Positions 897 through 12,799 of a stretch of 64,000 nucleotides of DNA are shown here, one piece after another; the stretch's first letter is position 1; every line of letters starts with the position of its first letter. This stretch comes from Rhodovastum atsumiense (GTDB taxonomy: Bacteria; Pseudomonadota; Alphaproteobacteria; Acetobacterales; Acetobacteraceae). The stretch spans positions 165 to 64,164 of the forward strand of contig JBBCJT010000030.1 in the NCBI GenBank assembly GCA_037190665.1. The letters run 5' to 3'. The position numbers and the translations under genes were made by a program. The notes under the pieces were generated by a model. The model made no database searches and had not been told where the DNA came from. It saw nothing but the letters and a program-made list of their open reading frames with translations.

Positions 897-1005
897 AGAG
901 TCCCCCTCGGCGACAGGATAGCCATGGCCGTATCCGGTTCCGCGGCGCCCGCGTCGCGAGGCCGTTGCAGGACCATCAACACCCGTGCTGCGGAAGGATC
1001 AGCGC

Positions 1006-1458
1006 ATGGCCGAACGTCTGACGAAAACGGGAGCGCGCAATGTCTTCTACGGTGGATCGATCTTCTTCTTCGTCATCTTCATCGGCCTGACCGCGCACAG
1101 CCATTACTACATGCGCACGCATTCGACCGACGAGTCGACGCTGACGTCGGCGGTCGCGCGCGGCAAGCATGTCTGGGAGCGCCATTCCTGCATCAACTGC
1201 CACACGCTGCTCGGCGAAGGCGCGTATTTCGCCCCCGAGCTCGGCAATGTCTGGAAGCGCTACGGCGGCGAAGATGATGCGGCGACCGCCCGCGAGACGC
1301 TCATCGCGTGGATGCAGGCGCAGCCCACCGGCATCGAGGGGCGCCGCCAGATGCCCCAGTTCAATCTCACCGAGCAGGAGCTGAACGACCTCGCCGCCTT
1401 CCTCGAATGGACGAGCCGGATCAAGACCCAGAACTGGCCGCCCAACGAGGCCGGCTGA
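1006..1458 (+). CDS. norC: Nitric oxide reductase subunit C (membrane-anchored cytochrome c)
   Basis: 150 aa from ATG 1006, with GGAAGGA 7 nt upstream; in-frame GTG 985 is an alternative start. N-terminal TM anchor and single haem-c motif CINCH. Lies immediately upstream of norB. Confidence 0.93.
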   Translation: MAERLTKTGARNVFYGGSIFFFVIFIGLTAHSHYYMRTHSTDESTLTSAVARGKHVWERHSCINCHTLLGEGAYFAPELGNVWKRYGGEDDAATARETLIAWMQAQPTGIEGRRQMPQFNLTEQELNDLAAFLEWTSRIKTQNWPPNEAG

Positions 1459-1494
1459 GATGGCGCTTCCGCAAGATCCGACCAGGAACAGGTC

Positions 1495-2844
1495 ATGACA
1501 CGATATCGCTCCCAGAACGTCGCGATGCTCTATTTCTACGGAGCGCTTGTGCTGTTCGTCGCACAGGTCGCCTTCGGTGTGCTCGCGGGCCTGATCTACG
1601 TTTTGCCCAACACGCTGTCCGAACTGCTGCCGTTCAACATCGTGCGGATGATCCATACCAACGCGCTGGTGGTGTGGCTGCTGCTCGGCTTCATGGGCGC
1701 GACCTACTACCTGCTGCCCGAGGAGACGGAGACCGAGCTCTACAGCACCAGGATAGCGGTGGTGCAGTTCTGGCTGTTCTTCGTGGCCGCCGCGATCGCC
1801 GTGGTCGGCTACCTGTTCCGCATCCACGAGGGACGCGAGTTCCTGGAACAGCCCTTCATCATCAAGGTCGGCATCGTCGTCGTGGTGCTGATGTTCCTGT
1901 TCAACATCACGCTGACGGCGCTGAAGGGCCGCAAGACCACGGTGACGAACATCCTGCTGTTCGGCCTGTGGGGTCTCGCGATCTTCTTCCTGTTCGCCTT
2001 CTACAACCCGACCAACCTCGCGCTCGACAAGCTCTACTGGTGGTACGTGATCCATCTGTGGGTGGAAGGCGTGTGGGAGCTGATCATGGCCTCCGTCCTG
2101 GCCTTCCTGATGATCAAGCTCACCGGCGTGGACCGCGAGGTGGTGGAGAAGTGGCTGTACGTGATCGTCGGCCTGGCGCTGTTCTCCGGCATCCTGGGCA
2201 CCGGCCACCACTACTACTGGATCGGCGCGCCGGGGTACTGGCAGTGGATCGGCTCGCTGTTCTCCACGCTCGAGGTCGCGCCGTTCTTCTCCATGGTGCT
2301 GTTCACCTTCCACATGACCTGGAAGGCCGGCCGCAACCATCCGAACAAGGCGGCGCTGCTGTGGGCGATCGGCTGCTCGGTGATGGCGTTCTTCGGCGCC
2401 GGCGTGTGGGGCTTCCTGCACACGCTGTCCTCGGTGAACTACTACACCCACGGCACCCAGATTACCGCCGCGCACGGCCACCTCGCCTTCTTCGGCGCCT
2501 ACGTGATGCTCAACCTCGCGGTGATGGCCTACGCCATCCCGGAACTGCGCGGGCGCGCGCCCTATAACCAGTGGCTCTCCATCACGAGCTTCTGGATGAT
2601 GGTCACGGCCATGTCGGTGATGACCTTCGCGCTCACCTTCGCGGGCGTTGTGCAGGTCCATCTCCAGCGCGTGCTCGGCCAGTCCTTCATGGAGGTGCAG
2701 GACCAGATCGCGCTGTTCTACTGGGTCCGGCTCGGCTCGGGCGTGATCGTGGTGATCTCGGCGCTGATGTTCATCTGGGCGGTGCTGGTGCCCGGACGGC
2801 AGGGCAAGGCGGAGCCGTACGGCCTCGCGCAGCCGGCCGAGTAA
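1495..2844 (+). CDS. norB: Nitric oxide reductase subunit B (cNOR catalytic subunit, haem-copper oxidase superfamily)
   Basis: 449 aa polytopic protein with conserved His motifs (HLWVEG, GHHYYWIG, HGHLAFFGAY). In canonical norC-norB order. Confidence 0.95.
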   Translation: MTRYRSQNVAMLYFYGALVLFVAQVAFGVLAGLIYVLPNTLSELLPFNIVRMIHTNALVVWLLLGFMGATYYLLPEETETELYSTRIAVVQFWLFFVAAAIAVVGYLFRIHEGREFLEQPFIIKVGIVVVVLMFLFNITLTALKGRKTTVTNILLFGLWGLAIFFLFAFYNPTNLALDKLYWWYVIHLWVEGVWELIMASVLAFLMIKLTGVDREVVEKWLYVIVGLALFSGILGTGHHYYWIGAPGYWQWIGSLFSTLEVAPFFSMVLFTFHMTWKAGRNHPNKAALLWAIGCSVMAFFGAGVWGFLHTLSSVNYYTHGTQITAAHGHLAFFGAYVMLNLAVMAYAIPELRGRAPYNQWLSITSFWMMVTAMSVMTFALTFAGVVQVHLQRVLGQSFMEVQDQIALFYWVRLGSGVIVVISALMFIWAVLVPGRQGKAEPYGLAQPAE

Positions 2845-2868
2845 CGGCAAGGGAGAGGACCCGCAGCG

Positions 2869-3690
2869 ATGAACATGCTCCGCCGCCCGTCGCCGCCCGC
2901 TCCGGGCGGCGAGCCCGGGGTTCCCGCCTACACCGCCTCCGGCCAGGAGTGCGCGCTGTTCGAGAAGGCGTGGGAGCGTGGCCTGCCCCTGTTGCTGAAG
3001 GGGCCGACCGGGGCGGGCAAGACGCGCTTCGTGCTGCACATGGCCGCCCGCCTCGGCCTGCCGGTGTCCACCGTGGTCTGCCATGACGACCTGACCGCGG
3101 CGGACCTCACCGGCCGGCATCTGCTGAAGGGCGGCGAGACGGTGTGGATGGACGGGCCGCTGACCCGCGCCGTCCGCGCCGGCGGGCTCTGCTACCTCGA
3201 CGAGATCGTCGAGGCGCGGAAGGACGTGGCGGTGGTGCTCCACTCGCTGACCGACGACCGGCGCATCCTGCCGCTGGAGCGCACCGGCGAGGAACTGCGG
3301 GCGCCGCCCTCCTTCATGCTCGTGATCTCCTACAACCCCGGCTATCAGAACCTGCTGAAGAACCTGAAGCCGTCCACCCGCCAGCGCTTCGTCTCCATCA
3401 CCTTCGACTTCCTGCCCCGCGAGCAGGAGATCGCCGTGGTGTCCCGCGAGAGCGGGCTCGGCGAGGCGGATGTCGCGCCGCTGGTGGACCTCGCGCGGCG
3501 GCTGCGCAGCCTCAAGGGCCAGGATATCGAGGAAGGCGTCTCGACCCGGCTCATCATCTACTGCGCGAGCCTGATCGGCGCCGGCATGCCGCTGCCCGCG
3601 GCGGTGACGGCGGCGCTGATCGAACCGCTGACCGACGAGCCCGAGGTCAAGGCCGCACTCGCCGAAATCGCCCGCGCCTGCCTGGGCTGA
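2869..3690 (+). CDS. norQ: NorQ, MoxR/CbbQ-type AAA+ ATPase for NOR maturation
   Basis: 273 aa with Walker A GPTGAGKT. RBS GGGAGAGG upstream. Sits between norB and norD. Confidence 0.9.
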   Translation: MNMLRRPSPPAPGGEPGVPAYTASGQECALFEKAWERGLPLLLKGPTGAGKTRFVLHMAARLGLPVSTVVCHDDLTAADLTGRHLLKGGETVWMDGPLTRAVRAGGLCYLDEIVEARKDVAVVLHSLTDDRRILPLERTGEELRAPPSFMLVISYNPGYQNLLKNLKPSTRQRFVSITFDFLPREQEIAVVSRESGLGEADVAPLVDLARRLRSLKGQDIEEGVSTRLIIYCASLIGAGMPLPAAVTAALIEPLTDEPEVKAALAEIARACLG

Positions 3691-3699
3691 GCGCGGCCG

Positions 3700-5601
3700 A
3701 TGCTCGATTTCCTCGAGCTTGAAGAGACGGTCGGCCGGTTCTGGCACCGGCTGGTCGGCGGCACCGCAAGCTGGCCCCGCCATCCCGACAGCGCGGTGAC
3801 GCTGGCCGAAATCGGCCCGATGCTCAGCGTCTGCTTCCGCGGCTTTGGCGGCGCACGCGGCATCCGCCTTGCTCCCGCGCACGGACGCAGCGCGGGCCAC
3901 CGGCTGAACTGGCGCCAGCGCGTGGGGCTGGGGGAGGAACGCCTCGCGCACCCGTTTCGCACCGCGGACAGCCTGCACCTGCCGCCCGAGATCGCGCTGT
4001 TCGCCGACGCCGCGCTGAACCGCGACCTCTATGTATGGCTGGCCGCCTGCATGGCCGCCTCCGCACCCGAACCCGTGGCCGAAGCCGATCCGCTGCAGCA
4101 GGACCTCGCGCTGCTGGCGGCGGCGGAGCGCATGGTCGATACCGTGCTGACGGCGTTTCCCGGCCTCGGCCCGCGCTACCATCGCCTCGCCGCCGCGACG
4201 CGCGCGGTCCGCGCCCGTGGCCCGCTGCCCGCGACCGAGGCACGGGTCGAGGCGCTGATCGGGCAACTGCTGGACAAGGAAGGCCCGGGCGCACCGCAGG
4301 TCGCCGTGGCCCCGCACGCCTGGGGCAGGGCGCCGCGCGGCTATCTGCCCGCGCTCGCCGTGCCGCTCTGGCCCTGGGTGGCGGTCCCCATCGCCGCGCC
4401 GTCCCGCCGCCGCGACGACGACGCGGCCCCGCGCCCGGCCCGCACGGATGCCGGCGCGATCCGCCACCACACGGCGCAGCGCGAGGAGGCGACGGACGGC
4501 AAGGACCGCAGCCCCTTCATCCTCAACCGCTTCGAGAAGATCCTCGCCATGTCGGAGATGGTGCGGGTCGACCGCCCGTCCGACGACAGCGACGACCACG
4601 ACCCGCAGGCCGCCGACGAGCTGGACGACATGGTGCTCGGCGAGCGCAAGGGCCGGCCGGCCGCGCGCTTCCGCTTCGATCTCGACCTGCCGCCCGAGGC
4701 GGTGGACCGCGCGCGGCTGACCGGCGCCGCGCTTTATCCGGAGTGGGACTTCCGCGCCGGCGCCTATCTCGACGATCATTGCCGCGTGCTCACCGGGCTC
4801 GTCGAAGCGGATGCCTCCGCCGGCGCCGACGATCCGGCCACGCGCGCGCTGGTACGGCGCGTGCGCAAGCAGTTCGAGGCGCTGCGCCCGCGTCGCGAGC
4901 CGCTGCGCGGGCAGATCGACGGCGCGGATCTCGACCTCGACGCGGTGGTGCGCCGGCAGACCGACCTCGCCGCCGGCGGCGCCGGCAGCGACCGCATCCA
5001 CATCGCCGGCCGGCCGCAGGCGTTCGACCTCGCGGTGACGACGCTGATGGACGTGTCGCTGTCCACCGATTCCTGGTTCGACGAGCTGCGGGTGCTGGAT
5101 GTCGAGAAGCAGGCGCTCTCGGTGCTGGCGCACGGACTGGCGGCGTGCGGCGACCGGCACGAGATCCTGACCTTCACCTCGCGCCGCCGCGACTGGGTGC
5201 GCATCGAGACGGTGAAGCGGTTCGACGAAGCCATGGGCGATGCGGTCGATGCGCGCATCGCCGCGCTGCGGCCCGGCTACTACACCCGCATCGGCGCCGC
5301 GATCCGCCACGCCGCCGCCGGTCTGAAGCGGCAGCCCGACCGCAGGAAGCTGCTGCTCGTGCTGACCGACGGCAAGCCCAACGACATCGACCACTACGAG
5401 GGGCGCTTCGCCATGGAGGACACGCGCAAGGCCGTTCTGGAAGCGCGGCGGACGGGCATCGCCGTCTTCGCCGTCACGGTGGACCGCGAATCGCGCGCGT
5501 ACATCCCGTTCCTGTTCGGACAGTCCGGCCACGCCATCGTCTCGCGGCTGTCGCGCCTGCCCGCGGCGCTGCCGGCGATCTACCGCGCGCTCGCGGCCTG
5601 A
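3700..5601 (+). CDS. norD: NorD, von Willebrand factor A domain protein partner of NorQ
   Basis: 633 aa with a C-terminal VWA domain: MIDAS-like D-x-S-x-S (DVSLSTDS) and LLLVLTDGKPND. Follows norQ. Confidence 0.88.
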   Translation: MLDFLELEETVGRFWHRLVGGTASWPRHPDSAVTLAEIGPMLSVCFRGFGGARGIRLAPAHGRSAGHRLNWRQRVGLGEERLAHPFRTADSLHLPPEIALFADAALNRDLYVWLAACMAASAPEPVAEADPLQQDLALLAAAERMVDTVLTAFPGLGPRYHRLAAATRAVRARGPLPATEARVEALIGQLLDKEGPGAPQVAVAPHAWGRAPRGYLPALAVPLWPWVAVPIAAPSRRRDDDAAPRPARTDAGAIRHHTAQREEATDGKDRSPFILNRFEKILAMSEMVRVDRPSDDSDDHDPQAADELDDMVLGERKGRPAARFRFDLDLPPEAVDRARLTGAALYPEWDFRAGAYLDDHCRVLTGLVEADASAGADDPATRALVRRVRKQFEALRPRREPLRGQIDGADLDLDAVVRRQTDLAAGGAGSDRIHIAGRPQAFDLAVTTLMDVSLSTDSWFDELRVLDVEKQALSVLAHGLAACGDRHEILTFTSRRRDWVRIETVKRFDEAMGDAVDARIAALRPGYYTRIGAAIRHAAAGLKRQPDRRKLLLVLTDGKPNDIDHYEGRFAMEDTRKAVLEARRTGIAVFAVTVDRESRAYIPFLFGQSGHAIVSRLSRLPAALPAIYRALAA

Positions 5602-5612
5602 AGGAGAGGGCG

Positions 5613-5768
5613 GTGAGCGACGCACAGATCGGCCTGATGGTCGCCGCGCCATGCATCGCGGTGATGGCGGTGCTGCTCTATCGCATGGGCGTGCTGCAGA
5701 AGACCGGCCTGATCACGGCGATCCTCGCCACGCTGGCCGTCGCGACGGTGCTGTTCCTCGAACAATAG
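5613..5768 (+). CDS. Small two-helix membrane protein (51 aa), last gene of the nor operon
   Basis: GTG start 5 nt after GGAGAGGG and 12 nt after the norD stop. Product VSDAQIGLMVAAPCIAVMAVLLYRMGVLQKTGLITAILATLAVATVLFLEQ has two hydrophobic segments. Too short to appear as its own ORF in the track. Confidence 0.45.
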   Translation: MSDAQIGLMVAAPCIAVMAVLLYRMGVLQKTGLITAILATLAVATVLFLEQ

Positions 5769-5797
5769 CGCGCGGCAGCGTCGCAAGCCGCACCTGT

Positions 5798-5811
5798 TTG
5801 CGGTGTCGCAA
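5798..5811. promoter_or_regulatory. Perfect NnrR-type box TTGCG-GTGT-CGCAA upstream of the DUF2249 operon
   Basis: Exact dyad. Its centre is about 77 nt upstream of ATG 5882, the same geometry as the nirK box. Confidence 0.7.
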
Positions 5812-5881
5812 AGTCACGAAGCCGGCGCCCGCCTTATCCTGTCGTGATCCGCCGTTCACGCGATCCGTAACGCGAGGCATC

Positions 5882-6175
5882 ATGCATACATCACCGTCTC
5901 AACCGCTGGACGTGCGGCAGATCCCCCCGCCGGTCCGCCACGCCACCATCTTCTCGATCCTGCAAGACCTCGCGCCGGGCACGTCGCTGTTCATCGTCAA
6001 CGACCACGATCCGGTGCCGCTCCATCGCCAGATAGATGCGCGTTATCCCGATGCCTATTCCTGGACCTACCTGTTGCAGGGCCCCGACCTCTGGCAGGTC
6101 GAGATCGGCCGGCTCGACGCGGCCGCGGAACACGCCGCCGGCTGCGATTCGGACGGCGGCTGCACCTGCGGCTGA
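5882..6175 (+). CDS. DUF2249 domain protein with Cys-rich C-terminal tail
   Basis: 97 aa. LDVRQIPPPVRHATIFSILQDLAPGTSLFIVNDHDPVPLHRQI...GPDLWQVEIGR matches the DUF2249 pattern as I recall it. Tail is GCDSDGGCTCG. Confidence 0.75.
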   Translation: MHTSPSQPLDVRQIPPPVRHATIFSILQDLAPGTSLFIVNDHDPVPLHRQIDARYPDAYSWTYLLQGPDLWQVEIGRLDAAAEHAAGCDSDGGCTCG

Positions 6176-6208
6176 GGTGGCCGCTCGCCGGCATCGGAGA
6201 AGCGGGTG

Positions 6209-7597
6209 ATGCCGATGGCATCGATCTCGCGCTGGACGATGAGCTACTTCGCCGTGGCGCTCGCCTTCCTGCTGACCGCCGAGGCGATGATGGCGGCCGG
6301 GATCGGCTACCCGTTCACGGACCTCGCCGATCCCGTCACGCTGATCCTCGTCCATCTGGTCACGATCGGCTGGCTGAGCCTGGCGATGGCCGGGGCGCTG
6401 ATCCAGTTCCTGCCGGTGCTGCTGGTGCAGCCGCTCGCCGCCCCGCGTCTCGCGCTGCCGGTGCTGGCGCTGATCGTCACCGGGCTCGGCGGGCTGTGCG
6501 CCGGCTTCCTCGCGGCATCCGGCCTGATTGCGCTGCCGGCCGAATTGCTGCCGGCGGGGGGCGTGCTGCTCCTCGCGGGGTTCGCCCTGCTCGTGTTCAT
6601 GCTGGGCCGGACGCTCGCCGGCGCGCGGCCGCTGGCGCAGGCACCCCGCTTCGTGGCGGTGGGCCTCGCCTGCCTGCTCGCCACCGCGTCGAGCGGGACG
6701 CTGTTCGCGGCCCTGCGGTCGGGAACGCTCGATCTTCCGGCCGCGGCCGGGCTGATGACGGCGGGGGTGCCCTATCACGCGCTGCTCGGCTTCGGCGGCT
6801 GGCTGAGCTTCACCGCGTTCGGCGTCAGCTACCGGCTGCTGTCGATGTTCATGATGGCGCCGGAGATCGAACGGCGCACCACGCGCGCCGCGCTGATCGG
6901 CGGCGCCGCCGCGCTGGCGCTCGCGGCGGCCGCGCTCGCCGCGCTGGGCCTGGACCGCGGCGATGGCGGGCTGCTGCTGGCGGCGGTGTCGGCGCTGGCG
7001 TTCGCCACGGCCCTCTACGGGGCCGATGTGGTCACGCTGTACCGCGTGCGGCGCCGCCGGCAGCTCGAGATCAACATGCAGGCCAGCATCGTCGCCTTCG
7101 CGATGCTGGCGCTGTCCGCCGTCGCATTGCCGGTCGCACTCGCGGCCGGGGTGCCGGCGTCCCTGCTGATCGCCCCGGTGTTTCTGTTCGCCTTCGGCTG
7201 GCTGTCCGGGTTGACGCTCGCGCAACTGGTCAAGATCGTCTCGTTCATGACCTGGCTCGAGACCTACAGCCGGTCGCTCGGCCACATCCGGCCGCCGCGT
7301 GTCGGGGAACTGCTCGCCGAACACCGCGCGCGGATCTGGTTCGCGCTGTATTTCGGCGGCGTCGCGCTGGGCACGGTCGCGCTCGTCGCCGGACCCGATC
7401 CGGCGTTCCGGATCGCCGCCCTGCTCTGCCTCGCCGGGACCGCCGGGATTGCCTGCGAGCTGATCCGCGTCCGCCGGCTGGCCGAGATCGACCCCGCCCG
7501 CCGCCCGCCGGACGGGCGCCGGCCGCGCCTGTTCCTGCCGCGTTCAGATGAGAGGAGACCCATCCATGGCGCCGTCCCCGCCCATCCGCGAGCTTGA
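6209..7597 (+). CDS. Uncharacterised polytopic inner-membrane protein (about 12 predicted TM segments)
   Basis: 462 aa from ATG 6209, with GGAGA 8 nt upstream; GTG 6206 is an alternative. Very hydrophobic. Repeated motif HLVTIGWLS / YHALLGFGGWLS. I recognise no family by eye. Confidence 0.7.
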   Translation: MPMASISRWTMSYFAVALAFLLTAEAMMAAGIGYPFTDLADPVTLILVHLVTIGWLSLAMAGALIQFLPVLLVQPLAAPRLALPVLALIVTGLGGLCAGFLAASGLIALPAELLPAGGVLLLAGFALLVFMLGRTLAGARPLAQAPRFVAVGLACLLATASSGTLFAALRSGTLDLPAAAGLMTAGVPYHALLGFGGWLSFTAFGVSYRLLSMFMMAPEIERRTTRAALIGGAAALALAAAALAALGLDRGDGGLLLAAVSALAFATALYGADVVTLYRVRRRRQLEINMQASIVAFAMLALSAVALPVALAAGVPASLLIAPVFLFAFGWLSGLTLAQLVKIVSFMTWLETYSRSLGHIRPPRVGELLAEHRARIWFALYFGGVALGTVALVAGPDPAFRIAALLCLAGTAGIACELIRVRRLAEIDPARRPPDGRRPRLFLPRSDERRPIHGAVPAHPRA

Positions 7598-8099
7598 CGT
7601 CCGGCCCATGCTGCAGGCCGGCGAGGAGCCGTTCCAGGCGATCATGGACGCGGTCGGCGCGCTGGCGCCTGGGGAGGCGCTGCGGCTCTACGCCCCGTTC
7701 CGGCCGGTGCCGCTGTTCTCCGTGATGGGCAACCGCGGCTTTTCCGCCCAGGACCGGCGGCTGCCGGACGGCGACTGGGAGGTGACCTTCACCCCGGTGG
7801 CGGGACTGGCGCAGGAAGAAGGCCTCTCCATCGGCAGCAGCCCCGCGGCCAATCTGTGGCCCAGCCCGATCGTGGAACTGGACCTGTGCGACCTCGACCC
7901 GCCGGAACCGATGGTCCGCATCCTGGAGGCGCTGCAGGAACTCGCACCCGGCGACACGCTGTTCGCGCTGCTGGCGCGCGAGCCGATCTTCCTGTTCCCC
8001 GAACTCGCCCGGCGCGGGCACGAATGGGCCGGCAATTTCGATGCGTCCAGGACGACCTATCGCCTGATGGTCCGCGTGGGCGACGTGCTCCAGCTATGA
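7566..8099 (+). CDS. Tandem (2x) DUF2249 domain protein
   Basis: 177 aa from ATG 7566, with AGGAG 8 nt upstream. Two DUF2249-like halves (LDVRPML...APGEALRL... and ELDLCDLDPPEPMVRILEALQELAPGDTLFAL...). Overlaps the preceding gene by 32 nt. Confidence 0.75.
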   Translation: MAPSPPIRELDVRPMLQAGEEPFQAIMDAVGALAPGEALRLYAPFRPVPLFSVMGNRGFSAQDRRLPDGDWEVTFTPVAGLAQEEGLSIGSSPAANLWPSPIVELDLCDLDPPEPMVRILEALQELAPGDTLFALLAREPIFLFPELARRGHEWAGNFDASRTTYRLMVRVGDVLQL

Positions 8100-8377
8100 C
8101 CGCCCCGCTGCAGGAGGCCGTGCGCGCGGCGCTGCGCAGCGTGATCGACCCCGAACTGGGCCGCGACCTTGTCGAGCTCGGATTGATCTACGCCACCGAG
8201 ATCGACGCCGCGGGGGCGGTGCGGGTCGACATGACCACCACCACGAGAGGCTGCCCGCTGGCCGGCCTGCTGAAGGAGATGGCGGCCACCAGCGTCGCGG
8301 CGGTGGATGGCGTCACCTCGGTCGAGATCCGCCTCGTCTACGAGCCGGCATGGTCGCCGGCGATGATCCAGGGCTGA
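8096..8377 (+). CDS. DUF59 (MIP18/SufT-like) metal-sulfur cluster assembly factor
   Basis: 93 aa. IDPELGRDLVELGLIY...TTTTRGCPLAG is the typical DUF59 core with its conserved Cys. ATGA start/stop overlap with the upstream gene. Confidence 0.8.
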   Translation: MTAPLQEAVRAALRSVIDPELGRDLVELGLIYATEIDAAGAVRVDMTTTTRGCPLAGLLKEMAATSVAAVDGVTSVEIRLVYEPAWSPAMIQG

Positions 8378-8431
8378 CCATCGTGGCGTTTCGGCCACGG
8401 GCGCCGATAACCGGCACAAAATCGCAATTGC

Positions 8432-8445
8432 TTGCGGCGCCGCAA
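8432..8445. promoter_or_regulatory. Perfect NnrR-type box TTGCG-GCGC-CGCAA upstream of nirK
   Basis: Exact dyad. Its centre is about 80 nt upstream of the nirK ATG at 8519. Confidence 0.75.
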
Positions 8446-8518
8446 ACTGCCCCCCCGTGGACGTCCTAAGTGAGGGGCGATCGGACACAACCCGATCGTT
8501 CCGAAAGGACAACACGCT

Positions 8519-9649
8519 ATGGTTGAACACCTTGGATTTAGCCGCCGGATGATCCTCGCGGGAGCGACGGCCTCCGGCGCAGCCGCGCCGGTTCTGGTTG
8601 CCGCGCCGGCCCGGGCTGCGAACGCACCCGCGGCGGCAGCCGCTGCCGCCGCCGAAATTGACAGGCTGCCCCGCGTGAAGGTCGATCTGGTCGACCCGCC
8701 CTTCGTGCATGCGCACGAGCAGGTTGCGACCGGTGGCCCGAAGGTCGTCGAATTCAAGATGACGATCGAGGAGAAGAAGATCGTCCTCGACGATCAGGGC
8801 ACGGAGGTCTTCGCCTTCACCTTCAACGGCACCGTCCCCGGCCCGCTGATGGTGGTGCACGAGGGCGACTACGTCGAGCTGACGCTGGTCAATCCCGAGA
8901 CCAACGAGCTGATGCACAACATCGACTTCCACTCGGCGACCGGTGCGCTCGGCGGCGGTGCGCTGACCGAGGTCAACCCCGGCGAGCAGACCGTGCTGCG
9001 CTGGAAGGCGACCCGGCCGGGTGTGTTCGTCTATCACTGCGCGCCTCCGGGCATGGTTCCGTGGCACGTCGTCTCGGGCATGAACGGCGCGATCATGGTG
9101 CTGCCGCGCGAGGGGCTGCGCGACGAGACCGGCAAGGCGCTGAAGTACGACCGGGTCTATTACGTCGGCGAGCAGGACTTCTACGTGCCGCGCGACGCGA
9201 GCGGGAAGTACAAGCGCTACGCCAGCATCGGCGAGTCGCATGAGGACACGATCGCGGCGATGCGGACGCTGACCCCCACCCACGTCGTCTTCAACGGCAA
9301 GGTCGGCGCGCTGACCGGGGCCAATGCGCTGACCTCGAAGGTGGGAGAGACGGTGCTGATCGTCCATTCCCAGGCCAACCGCGACACCCGCCCGCATCTG
9401 ATCGGCGGACACGGCGACTATGTCTGGGCGACCGGCAAGTTCCGCAACCGTCCCGAGCGCGACCTCGAGACGTGGTTCATCCCGGGCGGCTGTGCGGGGG
9501 CGGCGCTCTACACGTTCCTGCAGCCCGGCATCTACGCCTACGTGAACCACAACCTGATCGAGGCCTTCGAACTCGGCGCCGCCGGGCACTTCAAGGTCGA
9601 TGGCGACTGGAATGACGATCTGATGAAGAGGCTCACCCCGCGCGCCTGA
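8519..9649 (+). CDS. nirK: Copper-containing nitrite reductase
   Basis: 376 aa with a Tat-like signal (SRRMILAG...ARA). Cu ligand motifs HNIDFH and [28 protein letters not shown] upstream. Confidence 0.95.
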
Positions 9650-9665
9650 CCTGACCTTCGCTACG

Positions 9666-9696
9666 GACGCCCCGCGCGCAGGCCGCACGGGGCGTC
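9666..9696 (+). terminator. Stem-loop between nirK and nirV (9-bp GC stem GACGCCCCG/CGGGGCGTC, 13-nt loop); possible attenuator or partial terminator
   Basis: Perfect inverted repeat 17 nt after the nirK stop. No clear U-tract follows. Confidence 0.35.
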
Positions 9697-9724
9697 TGCC
9701 CTCTGAACGATGGAGGCCGCCATC

Positions 9725-10603
9725 ATGCGCAGATCGGCCCGGCTGCTGACCTGGGTGATCGTGCTTTCGGCCGGAATGCTCGCCGGCGCCACCGTGCTGC
9801 TCGTCCCGCGCACGCCGACGGATGCGGCGTCCTACCGGCCCCGGACCGTCACCGTGCCGCCCGGCACCTTCAGCCATCGCGTCGACGGCGAATTCATCCG
9901 CGACGGACAGCAGGCCGACGCGCCGATGGTCCCGATCCGGATCGATGCGCCGGTGGAGGTCATGGCCTTCCAGGTGACGCGGGCGGAATACGCGCGCTGT
10001 GTCGCCGACGGCGCCTGCCAGCGCCCGGACCGCCCCGAGGATCGCGGCGAGCTGCCGGTCACCGGCGTGAACTACATCGACGCCAGTGCCTATGCGCAGT
10101 GGCTGTCGCAAAGAACGGGGCAGACCTGGCGGCTGCCCGACGAGCACGAATGGGCCTATGTCGCGGGATCGCGCTTCGTGGACGATGCCCACGGCATCGA
10201 TCCGGACGACCGCAACCCGGCCAGGCGCTGGATCGCCGAGTACGAGCGCGCCGCGGCGCGCAAGAGCAGCAACGCCGACCCGCGGACGCGCCCGGTGGGC
10301 AGCTTCGGCGCGAACGAGCACGGCATCCACGACCTCGCCAGCAATGTCTGGGAATGGACCCGGACCTGCCACCGCCGGGTCATCCTCGATGCCGAGGGGC
10401 GCTCTATCCGGGAGACCCGGACCTGCGGCGTCTACGTGGCGGCGGGCCGCCACCGCGCCCCGATGACGCTGTTCGTGCGCGATCCGAAATCCGGCGGCTG
10501 CTCGGTCGCCACACCGCCTGACCATCTCGGCTTCCGCCTCGTCCGGCAGCCGGAATGGCGGGAACAGGTCGTTGCGAGCTTGCGCAACCGGCTGCGCATC
10601 TGA
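9725..10603 (+). CDS. nirV: NirV, formylglycine-generating-enzyme (SUMF1)-like protein co-transcribed with nirK
   Basis: ATG 9725 has GGAGG 8 nt upstream; ATG 9710 is an in-frame alternative. N-terminal TM/signal segment. SUMF1-type motifs WRLPDEHEWAYVAG and NVWEWT. Sits downstream of nirK. Confidence 0.8.
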   Translation: MRRSARLLTWVIVLSAGMLAGATVLLVPRTPTDAASYRPRTVTVPPGTFSHRVDGEFIRDGQQADAPMVPIRIDAPVEVMAFQVTRAEYARCVADGACQRPDRPEDRGELPVTGVNYIDASAYAQWLSQRTGQTWRLPDEHEWAYVAGSRFVDDAHGIDPDDRNPARRWIAEYERAAARKSSNADPRTRPVGSFGANEHGIHDLASNVWEWTRTCHRRVILDAEGRSIRETRTCGVYVAAGRHRAPMTLFVRDPKSGGCSVATPPDHLGFRLVRQPEWREQVVASLRNRLRI

Positions 10604-11148
10604 TGGATGGCGGCGCCCCGGTCATCGCCCGCCTGGAGACGGCGGACGAACCCCGCATCGAGCTGCTGCTGTGGATCCTGATCTGGAGCGAGCTCGCGGT
10701 CTTCACCGCGCTGCTCGCCGCCTTCACGATCGCCAATGTGCTCGATCCGGCGGGGTTCGCCGCCACGCGGAGCCATCTCGACCTCGGGCAGGCCGGCATC
10801 GCCACCGCCGTGCTGCTGACCAGCGGCCTGTTCGCCGCCCGCGCCCCGCGGATGCGGCATCCGTCGCGGGACCTGTTGCTGGCGGCGGCGGGCGGGGCCC
10901 TGTTCTGCGCCCTCAAGATCTCCGCCTATCTGCGGGAACTGCCGCTGGCCGGCGCGCAGGACGGACGGATGTTCGAGATGTACGTGCTAATCACCGGCTT
11001 CCATCTCGTGCACGTCTTCTTCGGCACGCTGCTGCTGGCCGGCGTGGCGTGGCGGCCGTCGCGGACGGCGGTGACCACGGTGGTGACGATCTGGCACGTC
11101 ATCGACCTTGTCTGGATCACCATTCTGCCAGTCGTCTATATCGGTTGA
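10603..11148 (+). CDS. norE: NorE, cytochrome c oxidase subunit III-like membrane protein
   Basis: 181 aa from the ATG that overlaps the nirV stop (TGATG). COX3-type motifs GFHLVHVFFG and WHVIDLVW. Confidence 0.8.
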   Translation: MDGGAPVIARLETADEPRIELLLWILIWSELAVFTALLAAFTIANVLDPAGFAATRSHLDLGQAGIATAVLLTSGLFAARAPRMRHPSRDLLLAAAGGALFCALKISAYLRELPLAGAQDGRMFEMYVLITGFHLVHVFFGTLLLAGVAWRPSRTAVTTVVTIWHVIDLVWITILPVVYIG

Positions 11149-11529: not shown

Positions 11530-12225
11530 ATGCCGATGGATCATAATGCCCTGCGCGCGATGCCGATCTTCGCATCGATGACCGACGAGCAGATCGAGCG
11601 GGTGGGCGCGCAGGCCACGATCCTCCGGATCCCGCAGGGCAAGTCCGTCTTTCAGCAGGGCGCGCCCGGGACCCATTTCTACCTGCTGCTGCAGGGCAGG
11701 CTGAAGGTGACGCAGGTCACCTCGGCCGGCCAGCAGATCATCATGCGCGTGGTCCATCCGGGAGATCTGTTCGGCTTCACCCGCGCGCTGAACCGGCCGG
11801 ATTATCCGGGCACCGCGAACGCTGCGGTGGACAGCCTGGTCGCGGCCTGGCGCGCGGAGATGTGGGACACGTTGGTGCAGAACTTCCCGGATGTCGCCAT
11901 GAACGCCATCCGCAGCATTGGTGAGCGGCTGAATGAGGCGCACACACGGATCCGGGAATTCTCGACCGAGGAGGTGGAGAAGCGGATCGCGCACGCGATC
12001 CTGCGGCTGATCGATCAGGCGGGGCGGCCGGATCGCGGCGGGACCCGCGTGGATTTCCCGATCTCGCGGCGCGACATCGCCGAGATGACCGGCACCACGC
12101 TCCATACGGTGTCGCGCACGCTGAGCGCCTGGCAGGGCCGCGGCCTCGTCGAGGGCGGGCGGCAGACGCTGCTGGTCAGCAATATTCCGGGCCTGAGGCG
12201 GCTGGCGGAGAGCGAGGAAGGCTGA
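11530..12225 (+). CDS. nnrR: Crp/Fnr-family transcriptional regulator, NnrR/Dnr type
   Basis: 231 aa. cNMP-binding-like N-domain and C-terminal HTH (RRDIAEMTGTTLHTVSRTLS). No N-terminal Cys cluster. Embedded among nir/nor genes that carry TTGCG-N4-CGCAA boxes. Confidence 0.8.
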   Translation: MPMDHNALRAMPIFASMTDEQIERVGAQATILRIPQGKSVFQQGAPGTHFYLLLQGRLKVTQVTSAGQQIIMRVVHPGDLFGFTRALNRPDYPGTANAAVDSLVAAWRAEMWDTLVQNFPDVAMNAIRSIGERLNEAHTRIREFSTEEVEKRIAHAILRLIDQAGRPDRGGTRVDFPISRRDIAEMTGTTLHTVSRTLSAWQGRGLVEGGRQTLLVSNIPGLRRLAESEEG

Positions 12226-12275: not shown

Positions 12276-12710
12276 CTACTTGTCGGCCTGCGCGACCAGC
12301 GCGGTGAAGACCTGCCGCGCCTTGCCCGGATGCCGGGCGGCCTTGGCCTCCTCCAGGTTGGTCGGCTCGCCGACCACGATCAGCGCGACCATGCCCATGC
12401 CGTAATGCGGCTTGCACTTGATCCCGTAGACGCCCGGCACGGTGAACGTGACGCTCACTTCCTCGTCGATCTTGCCGACGAAGGGGGTGGCGCCGGCGGG
12501 CATCATCTGCGGCACGCTTTCGGCGTTGTGTCCCCGGTCGGTGGCGATGAACTTCACCGTGTCACCGGGCGCGATCCGCACGAAGGCGGGCTCGTACACC
12601 ATGGCTCCGCCTGCCCCCTTGTTGAGCATCCGGATCTCGATCTCGGCCGCGCTCGCCGCCGTTGACATCATCAGGGACATCAGCGCGCCGGCCAGCATCA
12701 TCCTGAACAT
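12276..12710 (-). CDS. paz: Pseudoazurin (type-1 blue copper protein, electron donor to NirK)
   Basis: 144 aa from ATG 12710, with AAGGAG 6 nt upstream; the track ORF extends to 12737. Signal peptide ...STAASA/AEIE. Cu ligands GHN...C-x2-H-x4-M (CKPHYGMGM). Confidence 0.9.
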   Translation of the reverse strand: MFRMMLAGALMSLMMSTAASAAEIEIRMLNKGAGGAMVYEPAFVRIAPGDTVKFIATDRGHNAESVPQMMPAGATPFVGKIDEEVSVTFTVPGVYGIKCKPHYGMGMVALIVVGEPTNLEEAKAARHPGKARQVFTALVAQADK

Positions 12711-12785
12711 TCGGATCTCCTTGAATCGTCCGCGCAAGGTCCTGCTGCGGATGCCTGCTCGTAGCGCGATGCCGCGAAGAGAAAA

Positions 12786-12799
12786 TTGTGGTTGCGCAA
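12786..12799. promoter_or_regulatory. NnrR-type box TTGTG-GTTG-CGCAA upstream of pseudoazurin
   Basis: One mismatch to the dyad. Its centre is about 82 nt upstream of the paz ATG (minus strand), the same geometry as nirK. Confidence 0.6.

Follow-up and report, generated by a model that had tools for sequence, protein, structure and literature searches.

A predicted NnrR-regulated operon in Rhodovastum atsumiense sets an oxidase-fold membrane protein among DUF2249 and DUF59 proteins, between nor and nirK

Introduction

Among the described systems closest to the operon considered here – genes A to D of a 64,000-nucleotide stretch of Rhodovastum atsumiense DNA (assembly GCA_037190665.1, contig JBBCJT010000030.1, positions 165 to 64,164 of the forward strand; hereafter the window) – are the DUF2249 proteins DrpA and DrpB of Thermus thermophilus, the only studied members of that family that we found in the literature. 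The gene drpA overlaps drpB, both require the Crp-family regulator DnrT, and DrpB is a membrane-binding protein. In drp mutants the control of dnr and nar genes is disturbed: without DrpA or DrpB, expression of DnrS/DnrT and of nitrate reductase rises. A drpAB double mutant loses nitrate dependence and makes nitrate reductase protein with little activity, a defect that the authors relate to cofactor maturation. DUF2249, which the first-pass annotation of the window had taken to be wholly unstudied, therefore has genetic data behind it, in DrpA and in DrpB (DUF1858 followed by two DUF2249 domains). Denitrifying conditions induce all four DUF2249 genes of Haloferax, one of which, a fusion of DUF2249 to Mrp, a type of iron-sulfur (Fe-S) carrier, is encoded in the nar operon. 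In B. diazoefficiens the DUF1858 gene bsl7085 is among the most NnrR-dependent genes, at 29-fold.

A second comparison is with membrane proteins of the nitric oxide (NO) response. NnrS (PF05940) and the product of gene B are both 12-transmembrane (12-TM) proteins under NO-responsive regulation, predicted in the case of B; nnrS usually stands alone as a gene, in contrast to B, which has DUF2249 and DUF59 partners. Pei, Li, Kinch and Grishin (Protein Sci 2014) reportedly defined a heme-copper oxidase (HCO)-homology class. We take B, with its two conserved histidines, to fit that class, in which NnrS presumably also falls. A later paper cites Pei et al. 2014 for linking HCO-homology proteins with DUF2249. 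The RIC/YtfE/ScdA proteins (ScdA_N plus hemerythrin), finally, are NO-regulon proteins that repair iron centres. DUF2249 proteins and B homologues repeatedly have ScdA_N/DUF1858 and hemerythrin domains fused to them or encoded alongside, and the layout of DUF1858 plus two DUF2249 domains parallels that of ScdA_N plus hemerythrin. Unlike RIC, the window module has no hemerythrin or ScdA_N domain, and the analogy is one of context.

Here we report good support for reading genes A to D as a single operon under NnrR-type control, which serves nirK/nor denitrification as an accessory and is arranged around an oxidase-fold membrane protein with cytoplasmic partners. As to what the operon does, we tentatively favour a membrane-anchored module, activated by NnrR, that shields iron centres (Fe, Fe-S and possibly haem) or restores their metal during NO production.

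Results and Discussion

A compact operon that recurs with denitrification genes

All four open reading frames (ORFs; Table 1) translate cleanly. A gap of 33 nucleotides (nt) separates A from B, the end of B runs 32 nt into C, and C meets D in an ATGA overlap at 8096-8099. A GAGG- or GGAG-type ribosome site lies upstream of each chosen start, and the N-termini of homologues agree with those starts. The gene coordinates, both overlaps, the dyad positions discussed below and the four domain assignments (from Pfam for A, C and D; 12 TM helices for B), all of which the first-pass annotation had put forward, proved correct in the sequence.

A scan of about 185,600 genomes, one per species, turned up relatives of B in 535. 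We assembled 84 loci for comparison: the best 80 of this species scan, three named loci (S. meliloti 1021 pSymA, where tblastn placed the module at about 687.4-689.9 kb, R. etli CFN42 p42f, where it corresponds to RHE_RS29145-29160, and S. alkalisoli) and the window contig. C lies directly downstream of B in every one of them. Within 10 kb on either side, D is present in 82 of the 84, a Crp/Fnr gene in 65, A in 64, nirK in 49, norB in 45 and nnrS in 37; these counts ignore kinship, and most of the loci come from Hyphomicrobiales. The first-pass annotation had staked its proposal on co-occurrence with denitrification genes in other genomes, and that co-occurrence is strong, reaching other phyla as well.

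The module was found in S. meliloti pSymA, R. etli p42f and Brucella/Ochrobactrum. Bosea has the same gene arrangement as the window; in Ensifer, Rhizobium and Shinella the order is norECBQD, hemN (divergent), A-B-C-D, nnrS (divergent) and nirK-nirV-nnrR. Of the four proteins, C shows the strongest conservation, with about 72-79% identity to most Bosea proteins versus 55-59% for B. In loci without nirK and nor, the gene neighbourhood still suggests a tie to NO or to Fe-S: a divergent Crp/Fnr gene in Afipia, an Rrf2 regulator with Nfu/NifU in Sphingomicrobium (L037), and qNor in Pandoraea. In other phyla, B relatives of 20-30% identity keep DUF2249, DUF59 and Crp/Fnr genes, often beside nirK and nirV, and the further neighbours there include NnrS, cupin, hemerythrin (L086) and SCO1. 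A gene for a ScdA_N-hemerythrin protein of the RIC type neighbours the B relative in locus L091, and one for a DUF59-Mrp/ParA Fe-S carrier does so in L090.

Several individual loci deserve description in their own right. Afipia massiliensis DSM 17498 has two separate B-C-D copies (L025 and L063), both lacking an A gene; a Crp/Fnr-family gene stands beside each, and there is no nirK or nor within 10 kb of either. Mesorhizobium sp. Root157 (L010, 6696-9217) encodes a fixI-type P-type ATPase (HMA) and a 50-amino-acid (aa) FixS/CcoS-like ORF directly upstream of an A-less B-C-D; the adjacency may be a coincidence with a fixGHIS cluster or may reflect a copper link. ORF listings showed no missed A gene upstream of B in L010 or in L024. 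In the distant metagenomic loci L090 (5871-10847) and L092 (5834-8317), the B relative is flanked by genes for a protein of DrpB architecture, a DUF59 protein and extra single-domain DUF2249 proteins. L090 also encodes a Rieske protein, and its ORFs 5577-5867 and 9856-10608 have no Pfam match.

NnrR-type boxes and the predicted regulation of the operon

A perfect dyad, TTGCGGTGTCGCAA, of the type recognized by the NnrR/Dnr branch of Fnr-family regulators precedes the operon, with its centre 77.5 nt from the ATG of gene A (5882). The second perfect dyad, TTGCGGCGCCGCAA, stands 80.5 nt from the nirK ATG (8519). The 64-kb window has no other perfect TTGCG-N4-CGCAA site; shuffled sequences would give 0.09 rather than two, and one shuffle in 100 reached two. 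One-mismatch boxes are found upstream of norC (TTGCAAAAACGCAA, 883-896) and of the minus-strand pseudoazurin gene (TTGTGGTTGCGCAA, 12786-12799). The dyad before gene A is non-random, sits at a class II distance and has a cognate nnrR gene 3 kb downstream. The first-pass annotation had matched its geometry to the boxes of nirK (about 80 nt) and pseudoazurin (about 82 nt); the former agrees as it stands, the latter only when read on the minus strand.

The nor genes, the module, nirK and the pseudoazurin gene each have an NnrR-type site of their own. A fifth site, with one mismatch, lies between norC and norB at 1461-1474 and is probably there by chance.

Boxes of this kind are conserved along with the module. 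A TTG-N8-CAA box occurs no more than 250 nt upstream of it in 59 of 82 loci, where 0.094 would be expected per 250 nt, and the distances, lineage-specific though they are, are conserved. In the window, a -10-like hexamer, CTTATC, would set the dyad centre near -41, which is the class II geometry of Fnr-family activators. A generic sigma-70 scan found no promoter before gene A, as is expected of an activator-dependent promoter. A terminator scan between norD or the small ORF that follows it and gene A found none, which leaves room for read-through from norCBQD.

The nnrR gene (11530-12225) provides a cognate regulator within the window itself, and its product is the likely activator of the module. 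With a TTGCG-N4-CGCAA box at class II distance and a cognate regulator gene both present, the locus has the marks of an NnrR/Dnr regulon member, and the operon is predicted to be expressed in an NnrR- or NO-dependent manner.

Gene B encodes an oxidase-fold membrane protein with two invariant histidines

The gene B protein matched no Pfam or NCBIfam family (in Pfam, nothing at E < 0.1), and a profile of its close homologues found nothing among PDB sequences at E ≤ 10. Its AlphaFold model (21 homologues; pLDDT 89.3, pTM 0.90) has 12 long helices. When the model was searched with Foldseek, the best match was CcoN of the cbb3 oxidase (3mk7; E 1.7e-7, TM-score 0.67), and further matches were NorB of the cytochrome c-type NO reductase (cNOR; 4xyd and 3o0r) and subunit I of bo3- and aa3-type oxidases; across 3mk7, 4xyd and 3o0r the TM-scores are about 0.6-0.67 at 12-15% identity. 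An exhaustive profile search collected B relatives in 2,153 clusters. Several full-length relatives at 20-30% identity pass or come near the Pfam COX1 threshold (one of them, P0245, scores 63.9 bits where the cut-off is 34.8), and in distant relatives the COX1 match covers profile positions 343-409; the window protein itself does not reach the COX1 gathering threshold.

In a comparison by hhalign, a 58-member B family profile aligned with the NorB family at E 3.8e-7. TM1-4 of B align on TM9-12 of NorB, with H49 meeting the second histidine of the NorB TM10 HxH motif, and alternative alignments place TM5-8 on the same NorB region, weakly. Earlier hhalign runs of a narrow B profile against NnrS and NorB had been uninformative, and it was the NorB comparison that we reran with the 58-member alignment; the kinship with oxidases is thus visible only by structure comparison and with the broader family profile. 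The central membrane protein, left without a family in the first-pass annotation, accordingly has the fold of HCO subunit I and NorB and sequence links to COX1.

The features that reportedly mark the HCO-homology class are all found in B, which we assign to no named subfamily: 12 TM helices in three units matching TM9-12, two conserved histidines, and a denitrification/NO context. B is an HCO-homology protein with one candidate cofactor site. It shares with the catalytic subunits of oxidases and NO reductases (CcoN, NorB; COX1, PF00115) the 12 TM helices in three four-helix pseudo-repeats. In the model these helices display the three-fold pseudo-symmetry of a catalytic subunit, and three repeats of a GW motif are visible in the B alignment.

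Could B have a catalytic role of its own, as a divergent reductase of NO, O2 or nitrite or as an NO scavenger, with A, C and D as its assembly factors or its electron or ligand partners? The complete 12-helix catalytic fold, the cbb3 oxidase and cNOR as nearest structures, the distant relatives that exceed the COX1 threshold, and a predicted co-regulation with adjoining NO-producing and NO-consuming enzymes would all suit such a role. The residues do not. B lacks the set of six histidines that ligate low-spin haem, high-spin haem and CuB/FeB: across 58 representatives H49, Q66, H190, M213, F214 and R281 are invariant and K342 is kept in 54, with no conserved histidine beyond H49 and H190, and the third (TM10) repeat reads FGWLSGL, with no histidine at all. 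As only two of the six canonical ligands have counterparts, a binuclear centre is not expected. Nor does B have a cytochrome c or quinol-binding partner of its own; in contrast to HCO/NOR subunits, which have NorC- or CcoO-type partners, it is accompanied by small cytoplasmic proteins. NnrS-type relatives, moreover, do not directly remove NO according to the literature. Given the missing ligands, we rejected B as a canonical NOR or oxidase, and consider an enzymatic role of any kind highly improbable.

The distribution of basic residues in the loops predicts an N-in, C-in topology for B. Given that topology, H49 (TM2) and H190 (TM6) would lie near the periplasmic ends of their helices, and the conserved residues Q66, Y208, D273 and K342, with those of the conserved arginine loop (R279, R281 and R283), would face the cytoplasm.

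B was also considered as an NnrS and rejected. It has no Pfam NnrS match, which answers the check that the first-pass annotation had set for its membrane protein and separates B from the characterized NnrS family, and real nnrS genes stand beside the module in other genomes. Because the two co-occur in the same loci, NnrS and B are not substitutes for each other. The hhalign comparison with R. etli NnrS gave a probability of 0.35%, in the uninformative run with the narrow profile. In contrast to most related loci, the whole window has no nnrS.

In a look among B relatives for fusions that would prove contact between B and a DUF2249 protein, the sole candidate was P0206, a 349-aa representative in which a DUF2249 domain precedes a B-like region. 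It could reflect a true fusion of A with B, in which case contact would gain support, or the erroneous joining of two genes on a fragment.

Genes A and C encode DUF2249 proteins without the TusA cysteine

The gene A protein matches Pfam DUF2249 (PF10006) at E 2.4e-26 and 91.8 bits, and the gene C protein matches it in two stretches at E 5.4e-34 and 116.3 bits, the cut-off being 29.5 bits; C also has a weak match to TusA (E 8.9e-7). A sequence search found no solved DUF2249 structure. In the AlphaFold model of C (pLDDT 88.9), each half has the TusA fold by Foldseek, with matches to 3lvj (TMt 0.80), the SirA-like 3hz7 and 1dcj (TMt 0.73-0.83 over the set). YeeD of the YeeE-YeeD complex (8k1r) is also among them; with TusA/YeeD the domain match is at TMt 0.80-0.83 and a root-mean-square deviation of about 2 Å. 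The docking of YeeD on the membrane transporter YeeE provides a precedent for a TusA-fold protein seated on a polytopic partner.

The persulfide cysteine of the TusA CPxP motif is absent from both proteins. Its position is taken by an invariant P112 in the second domain of C (DPPEP) and by R19-H20 in A, and among homologues of C there is no conserved cysteine and only one conserved histidine, H152. With that cysteine replaced, sulfur relay chemistry is not expected, and we rejected A and C as sulfur carriers. Neither these two proteins nor D has a signal peptide, so all three are taken to be cytoplasmic.

In A, the residues R19, H20 and H42 are present in all 61 sequences compared, D41 in 59 and D43 in 56. 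In TusA the corresponding positions hold the active-site cysteine and the 'DDP' motif, and we read the residues of A as a probable mononuclear metal site. A Cys/His tail ends 44 of 60 A proteins (CTCGH, CDCCCGGH and ECTCGNH are examples), and the window protein closes on a CxC tail, CDSDGGCTCG. Loci with a tailed A have nirK or norB in 40 of 44 cases, against 5 of 16 for tail-less A (Fisher p 1e-5, kinship ignored).

The company kept by the tail would fit a cofactor-insertion line for denitrification enzymes, serving the copper sites of NirK or the FeB/haem of NorB: A, with its tail, would be the carrier of Cu(I) or Fe(II), helped by C and D, and B would pass or present the metal at the membrane, alongside NorQD, NirV and HemN. 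Such a role would also suit the place of the module between norQD and nirK-nirV in the window, the adjacency to nirK that holds across phyla, the hemN, SCO1/SenC and fixI-fixS genes beside the module elsewhere, and the invariance in B of M213 together with both histidines. In the Thermus drpAB mutants, likewise, nitrate reductase is inactive despite normal protein levels. Against this stands first the location of the parts, A, C and D having no signal peptides. NirK-type copper centres, where studied, are loaded in the periplasm. Many loci, moreover, have neither nirK nor nor within 10 kb (Afipia, Pseudolabrys, Sphingomicrobium), only a Crp/Fnr or Rrf2 gene being near; the DUF59, Mrp, Nfu and RIC neighbours suggest Fe-S rather than copper; and the tail statistic takes no account of kinship. 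On balance we judge a dedicated insertion line unlikely.

Comparison with DrpA and DrpB, and the case for signalling

Like DrpA of T. thermophilus, A is a single DUF2249 domain with conserved histidines (H20 and H42, both invariant), and C, like DrpB, carries DUF2249 in tandem; in both systems the genes overlap and a Crp-family denitrification regulator is involved, here the nnrR gene of the window. The histidines of A, the tandem domains of C and nnrR thus agree with a DrpA/DrpB-type pair, whereas the N-terminal DUF1858 of DrpB is missing from C, which has two DUF2249 domains only. Membrane binding, reported for DrpB, is only proposed for C. The drp operon as described is also bicistronic, with no HCO-like gene or DUF59 reported, and is linked to nar rather than to nirK/nor. 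We likened A and C to the Thermus proteins by described domain architecture, and the only sequence proxy comes from L090, where C shares 41% identity with a DUF1858 plus 2xDUF2249 protein and A shares 54% with the single-domain DUF2249 protein encoded next to it. The tandem-DUF2249 genes of L090 and L092 do have the DrpB architecture (DUF1858 plus 2xDUF2249, 269-273 aa).

If the action proposed for DrpA/DrpB on DnrS/DnrT is taken as a model, the module might be a signalling device, in which B senses NO, nitrite or redox state and A and C relay the signal to NnrR. To our knowledge, how NnrR perceives NO is not settled, which leaves a place for such a device. The Thermus genetics and the membrane binding of DrpB speak for it, as does the Crp/Fnr gene found within 10 kb in 65 of the 84 loci: it is directly divergent in Afipia, Bradyrhizobium and Mesorhizobium, and lies inside the module in one distant locus. 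A regulator beside its target operon, however, suffices to explain adjacency, and the Thermus phenotypes could be indirect. Pfam found no DNA-binding, kinase, receiver or other signalling domain in the four proteins, C lacks the DUF1858 of DrpB, and the near-universal DUF59 gene and the Fe-S carriers and RIC of related loci are not what one would expect of a sensor. We regard a signalling function as unlikely.

Gene D encodes a DUF59 protein outside a SUF context

The DUF59 family is linked to Fe-S maturation. D belongs to it by Pfam (FeS_assembly_P; E 2.4e-21, 76.2 bits against a cut-off of 23.5), resembles the structure of TM0487 (PDB 1uwd; E 4.5e-19) and keeps the cysteine of the TxTxxGCP motif, C53; T47, T49, G52, C53 and P54 are all at least 90% conserved. 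Family membership and the GCP cysteine are thus common to D and to the other DUF59 proteins (SufT, TM0487, the Mrp/HCF101 domain and CIA2/MIP18). In contrast to suf-linked DUF59 proteins, D is encoded with an oxidase-like membrane protein and not with suf genes. We rejected D as the SufT of a SUF system, for that reason and because of its scores against the corresponding NCBIfam models, given below.

A model for the module

We return to the favoured reading, that of a membrane-anchored module that keeps iron centres intact or refills them while NO is being produced. The first-pass annotation had already pictured an NO-linked module acting on metallocentres, and the idea survives the present analysis as the best reading. 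When NO appears, NnrR would bind the dyad at 5798-5811 and turn on the class II promoter, and the four genes would be translated as a coupled unit. B would hold its one candidate cofactor site, H49 and H190, near the periplasmic face; the occupant would most likely be a single bis-His haem, possibly a metal ion, and a protein so equipped could not be a canonical NO or O2 reductase. The arginine-rich cytoplasmic loop of B (R279, R281, R283) and its basic C-terminal tail may dock C, which, as a tandem TusA-fold adaptor akin to the membrane-binding DrpB of Thermus, would recruit A and D. A, with its putative His/Asp metal site and Cys/His tail, and D, with its reactive DUF59 cysteine, would then pass iron or Fe-S units to metalloproteins that are nascent or have been damaged by NO.

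We favour repair because the DUF59 gene is near-universal in the module, because Fe-S carriers and RIC/hemerythrin proteins recur in related loci, because A bears the signature of a metal site, and because the module persists without nirK or nor yet keeps regulators of the NO type. A number of points weigh against it. D scores below the NCBIfam cut-offs for both the SUF-associated family (TIGR02945; 87.3 versus 143.4) and SufT (TIGR03406; 65.2 versus 202.6), and no suf or isc genes adjoin the module in the window. With no conserved cysteine and a single conserved histidine in C, the adaptor role is a guess. The authors of the Thermus work read DrpA and DrpB as sensors and not as maturation factors, and NnrS, the nearest functional analogue, has no defined mechanism in the literature. 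Literature searches by presumed locus tags on the copies in S. meliloti, R. etli, Agrobacterium and Brucella found no paper on them and no transcriptome data for the module genes. The synteny itself comes largely from the related genomes of one order.

The oxidase scaffold may alternatively serve as a transmembrane coupling device, in which the H49/H190 cofactor reads NO or redox state and the cytoplasmic partners respond. The cofactor would occupy the otherwise empty third pseudo-symmetric HCO position near the periplasm, and a conserved polar track of Q66, Y208, D273 and K342 would connect it with the cytoplasmic side, transmitting its state or conducting a metal ion. The DrpA/DrpB-like proteins and DUF59 would answer by delivering iron or Fe-S units or by gating NnrR. 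We think this quite doubtful; if the device does gate NnrR, the module would supply the step, so far missing, by which NnrR-type regulators perceive NO.

Other features of the window

The gene order in the window is norC-norB-norQ-norD, a 51-codon ORF, A-B-C-D, nirK, a nirV-like gene, a norE-like gene and nnrR (Table 1).

Table 1. Coordinates and assignments of the module genes, predicted promoter elements and neighbouring genes in the window
Feature	Coordinates	Strand	Description or basis
Gene A	5882-6175	+	97-aa cytoplasmic single-domain DUF2249 (TusA-like, DrpA-like) protein
Gene B	6209-7597	+	462-aa 12-TM protein, heme-copper oxidase superfamily ("HCO homology")
Gene C	7566-8099	+	177-aa tandem DUF2249 protein
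Gene D	8096-8377	+	93-aa DUF59 / FeS_assembly_P protein
Perfect NnrR/Dnr-type (Fnr-family) dyad TTGCGGTGTCGCAA	5798-5811		Predicted promoter element of the module
-10-like hexamer CTTATC	5833-5838	+	Putative, from reading of the sequence
Second perfect NnrR-type dyad TTGCGGCGCCGCAA, before nirK	8432-8445		Sequence
norC, norB, norQ, norD	985-5601	+	Pfam
51-aa hydrophobic ORF between norD and the module	5613-5768	+	tblastn
nirK	8519-9649	+	Pfam
nirV-like FGE-sulfatase gene	9710-10603	+	Pfam
norE-like gene	10555-11148	+	Weak COX3 match; 45% identical to R. etli NorE
nnrR, Crp/Fnr-family regulator	11530-12225	+	60% identity to R. etli NnrR; Pfam cNMP_binding and HTH_Crp_2
Pseudoazurin gene	~12312-12716	-	54% identical to S. 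alkalisoli pseudoazurin

The 51-codon ORF has tblastn matches in 41 of the 84 loci and travels with nor clusters. It shows 52-64% identity in R. etli p42f and S. meliloti pSymA, its R. etli counterpart, RHE_RS33340, is labelled only 'hypothetical', and it differs from NorF (COX4_pro). Possibly it encodes an unrecognized small subunit or assembly factor of cNOR. Two long ORFs run on the minus strand, one of 1,558 codons over norCBQD (976-5652) and one of 822 codons over nirK-nirV (8057-10525); we took both for artefacts of high G+C content, not for genes.

Significance

The first-pass annotation presented the operon as a candidate for a previously undescribed system. That wording is too strong, because each part comes from a known superfamily and computational work has already noted the association of the parts, so that this is not a categorically new system; "functionally uncharacterized" is accurate, and our literature searches found no experimental function for any of the four proteins. 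The operon is a four-gene assembly for which we found no experimental description, present in model organisms, that joins three poorly understood families. Well-studied bacteria carry it within their core nirK/nor islands, among them S. meliloti (on pSymA), R. etli (on p42f) and Brucella/Ochrobactrum; kin occur in other phyla, and the system is genetically tractable in existing model strains. Its characterization would give DUF2249, a domain tied to denitrification, hemerythrins and Fe-S carriers, a first biochemical role, and would help define that of the "two-histidine" relatives of the respiratory oxidases. The module bears on how iron centres are kept working under NO, or on how NnrR-type regulators learn of NO, and so is relevant to the nitrous oxide (N2O) and NO emissions of soil bacteria and to the NO resistance of Brucella-type pathogens.

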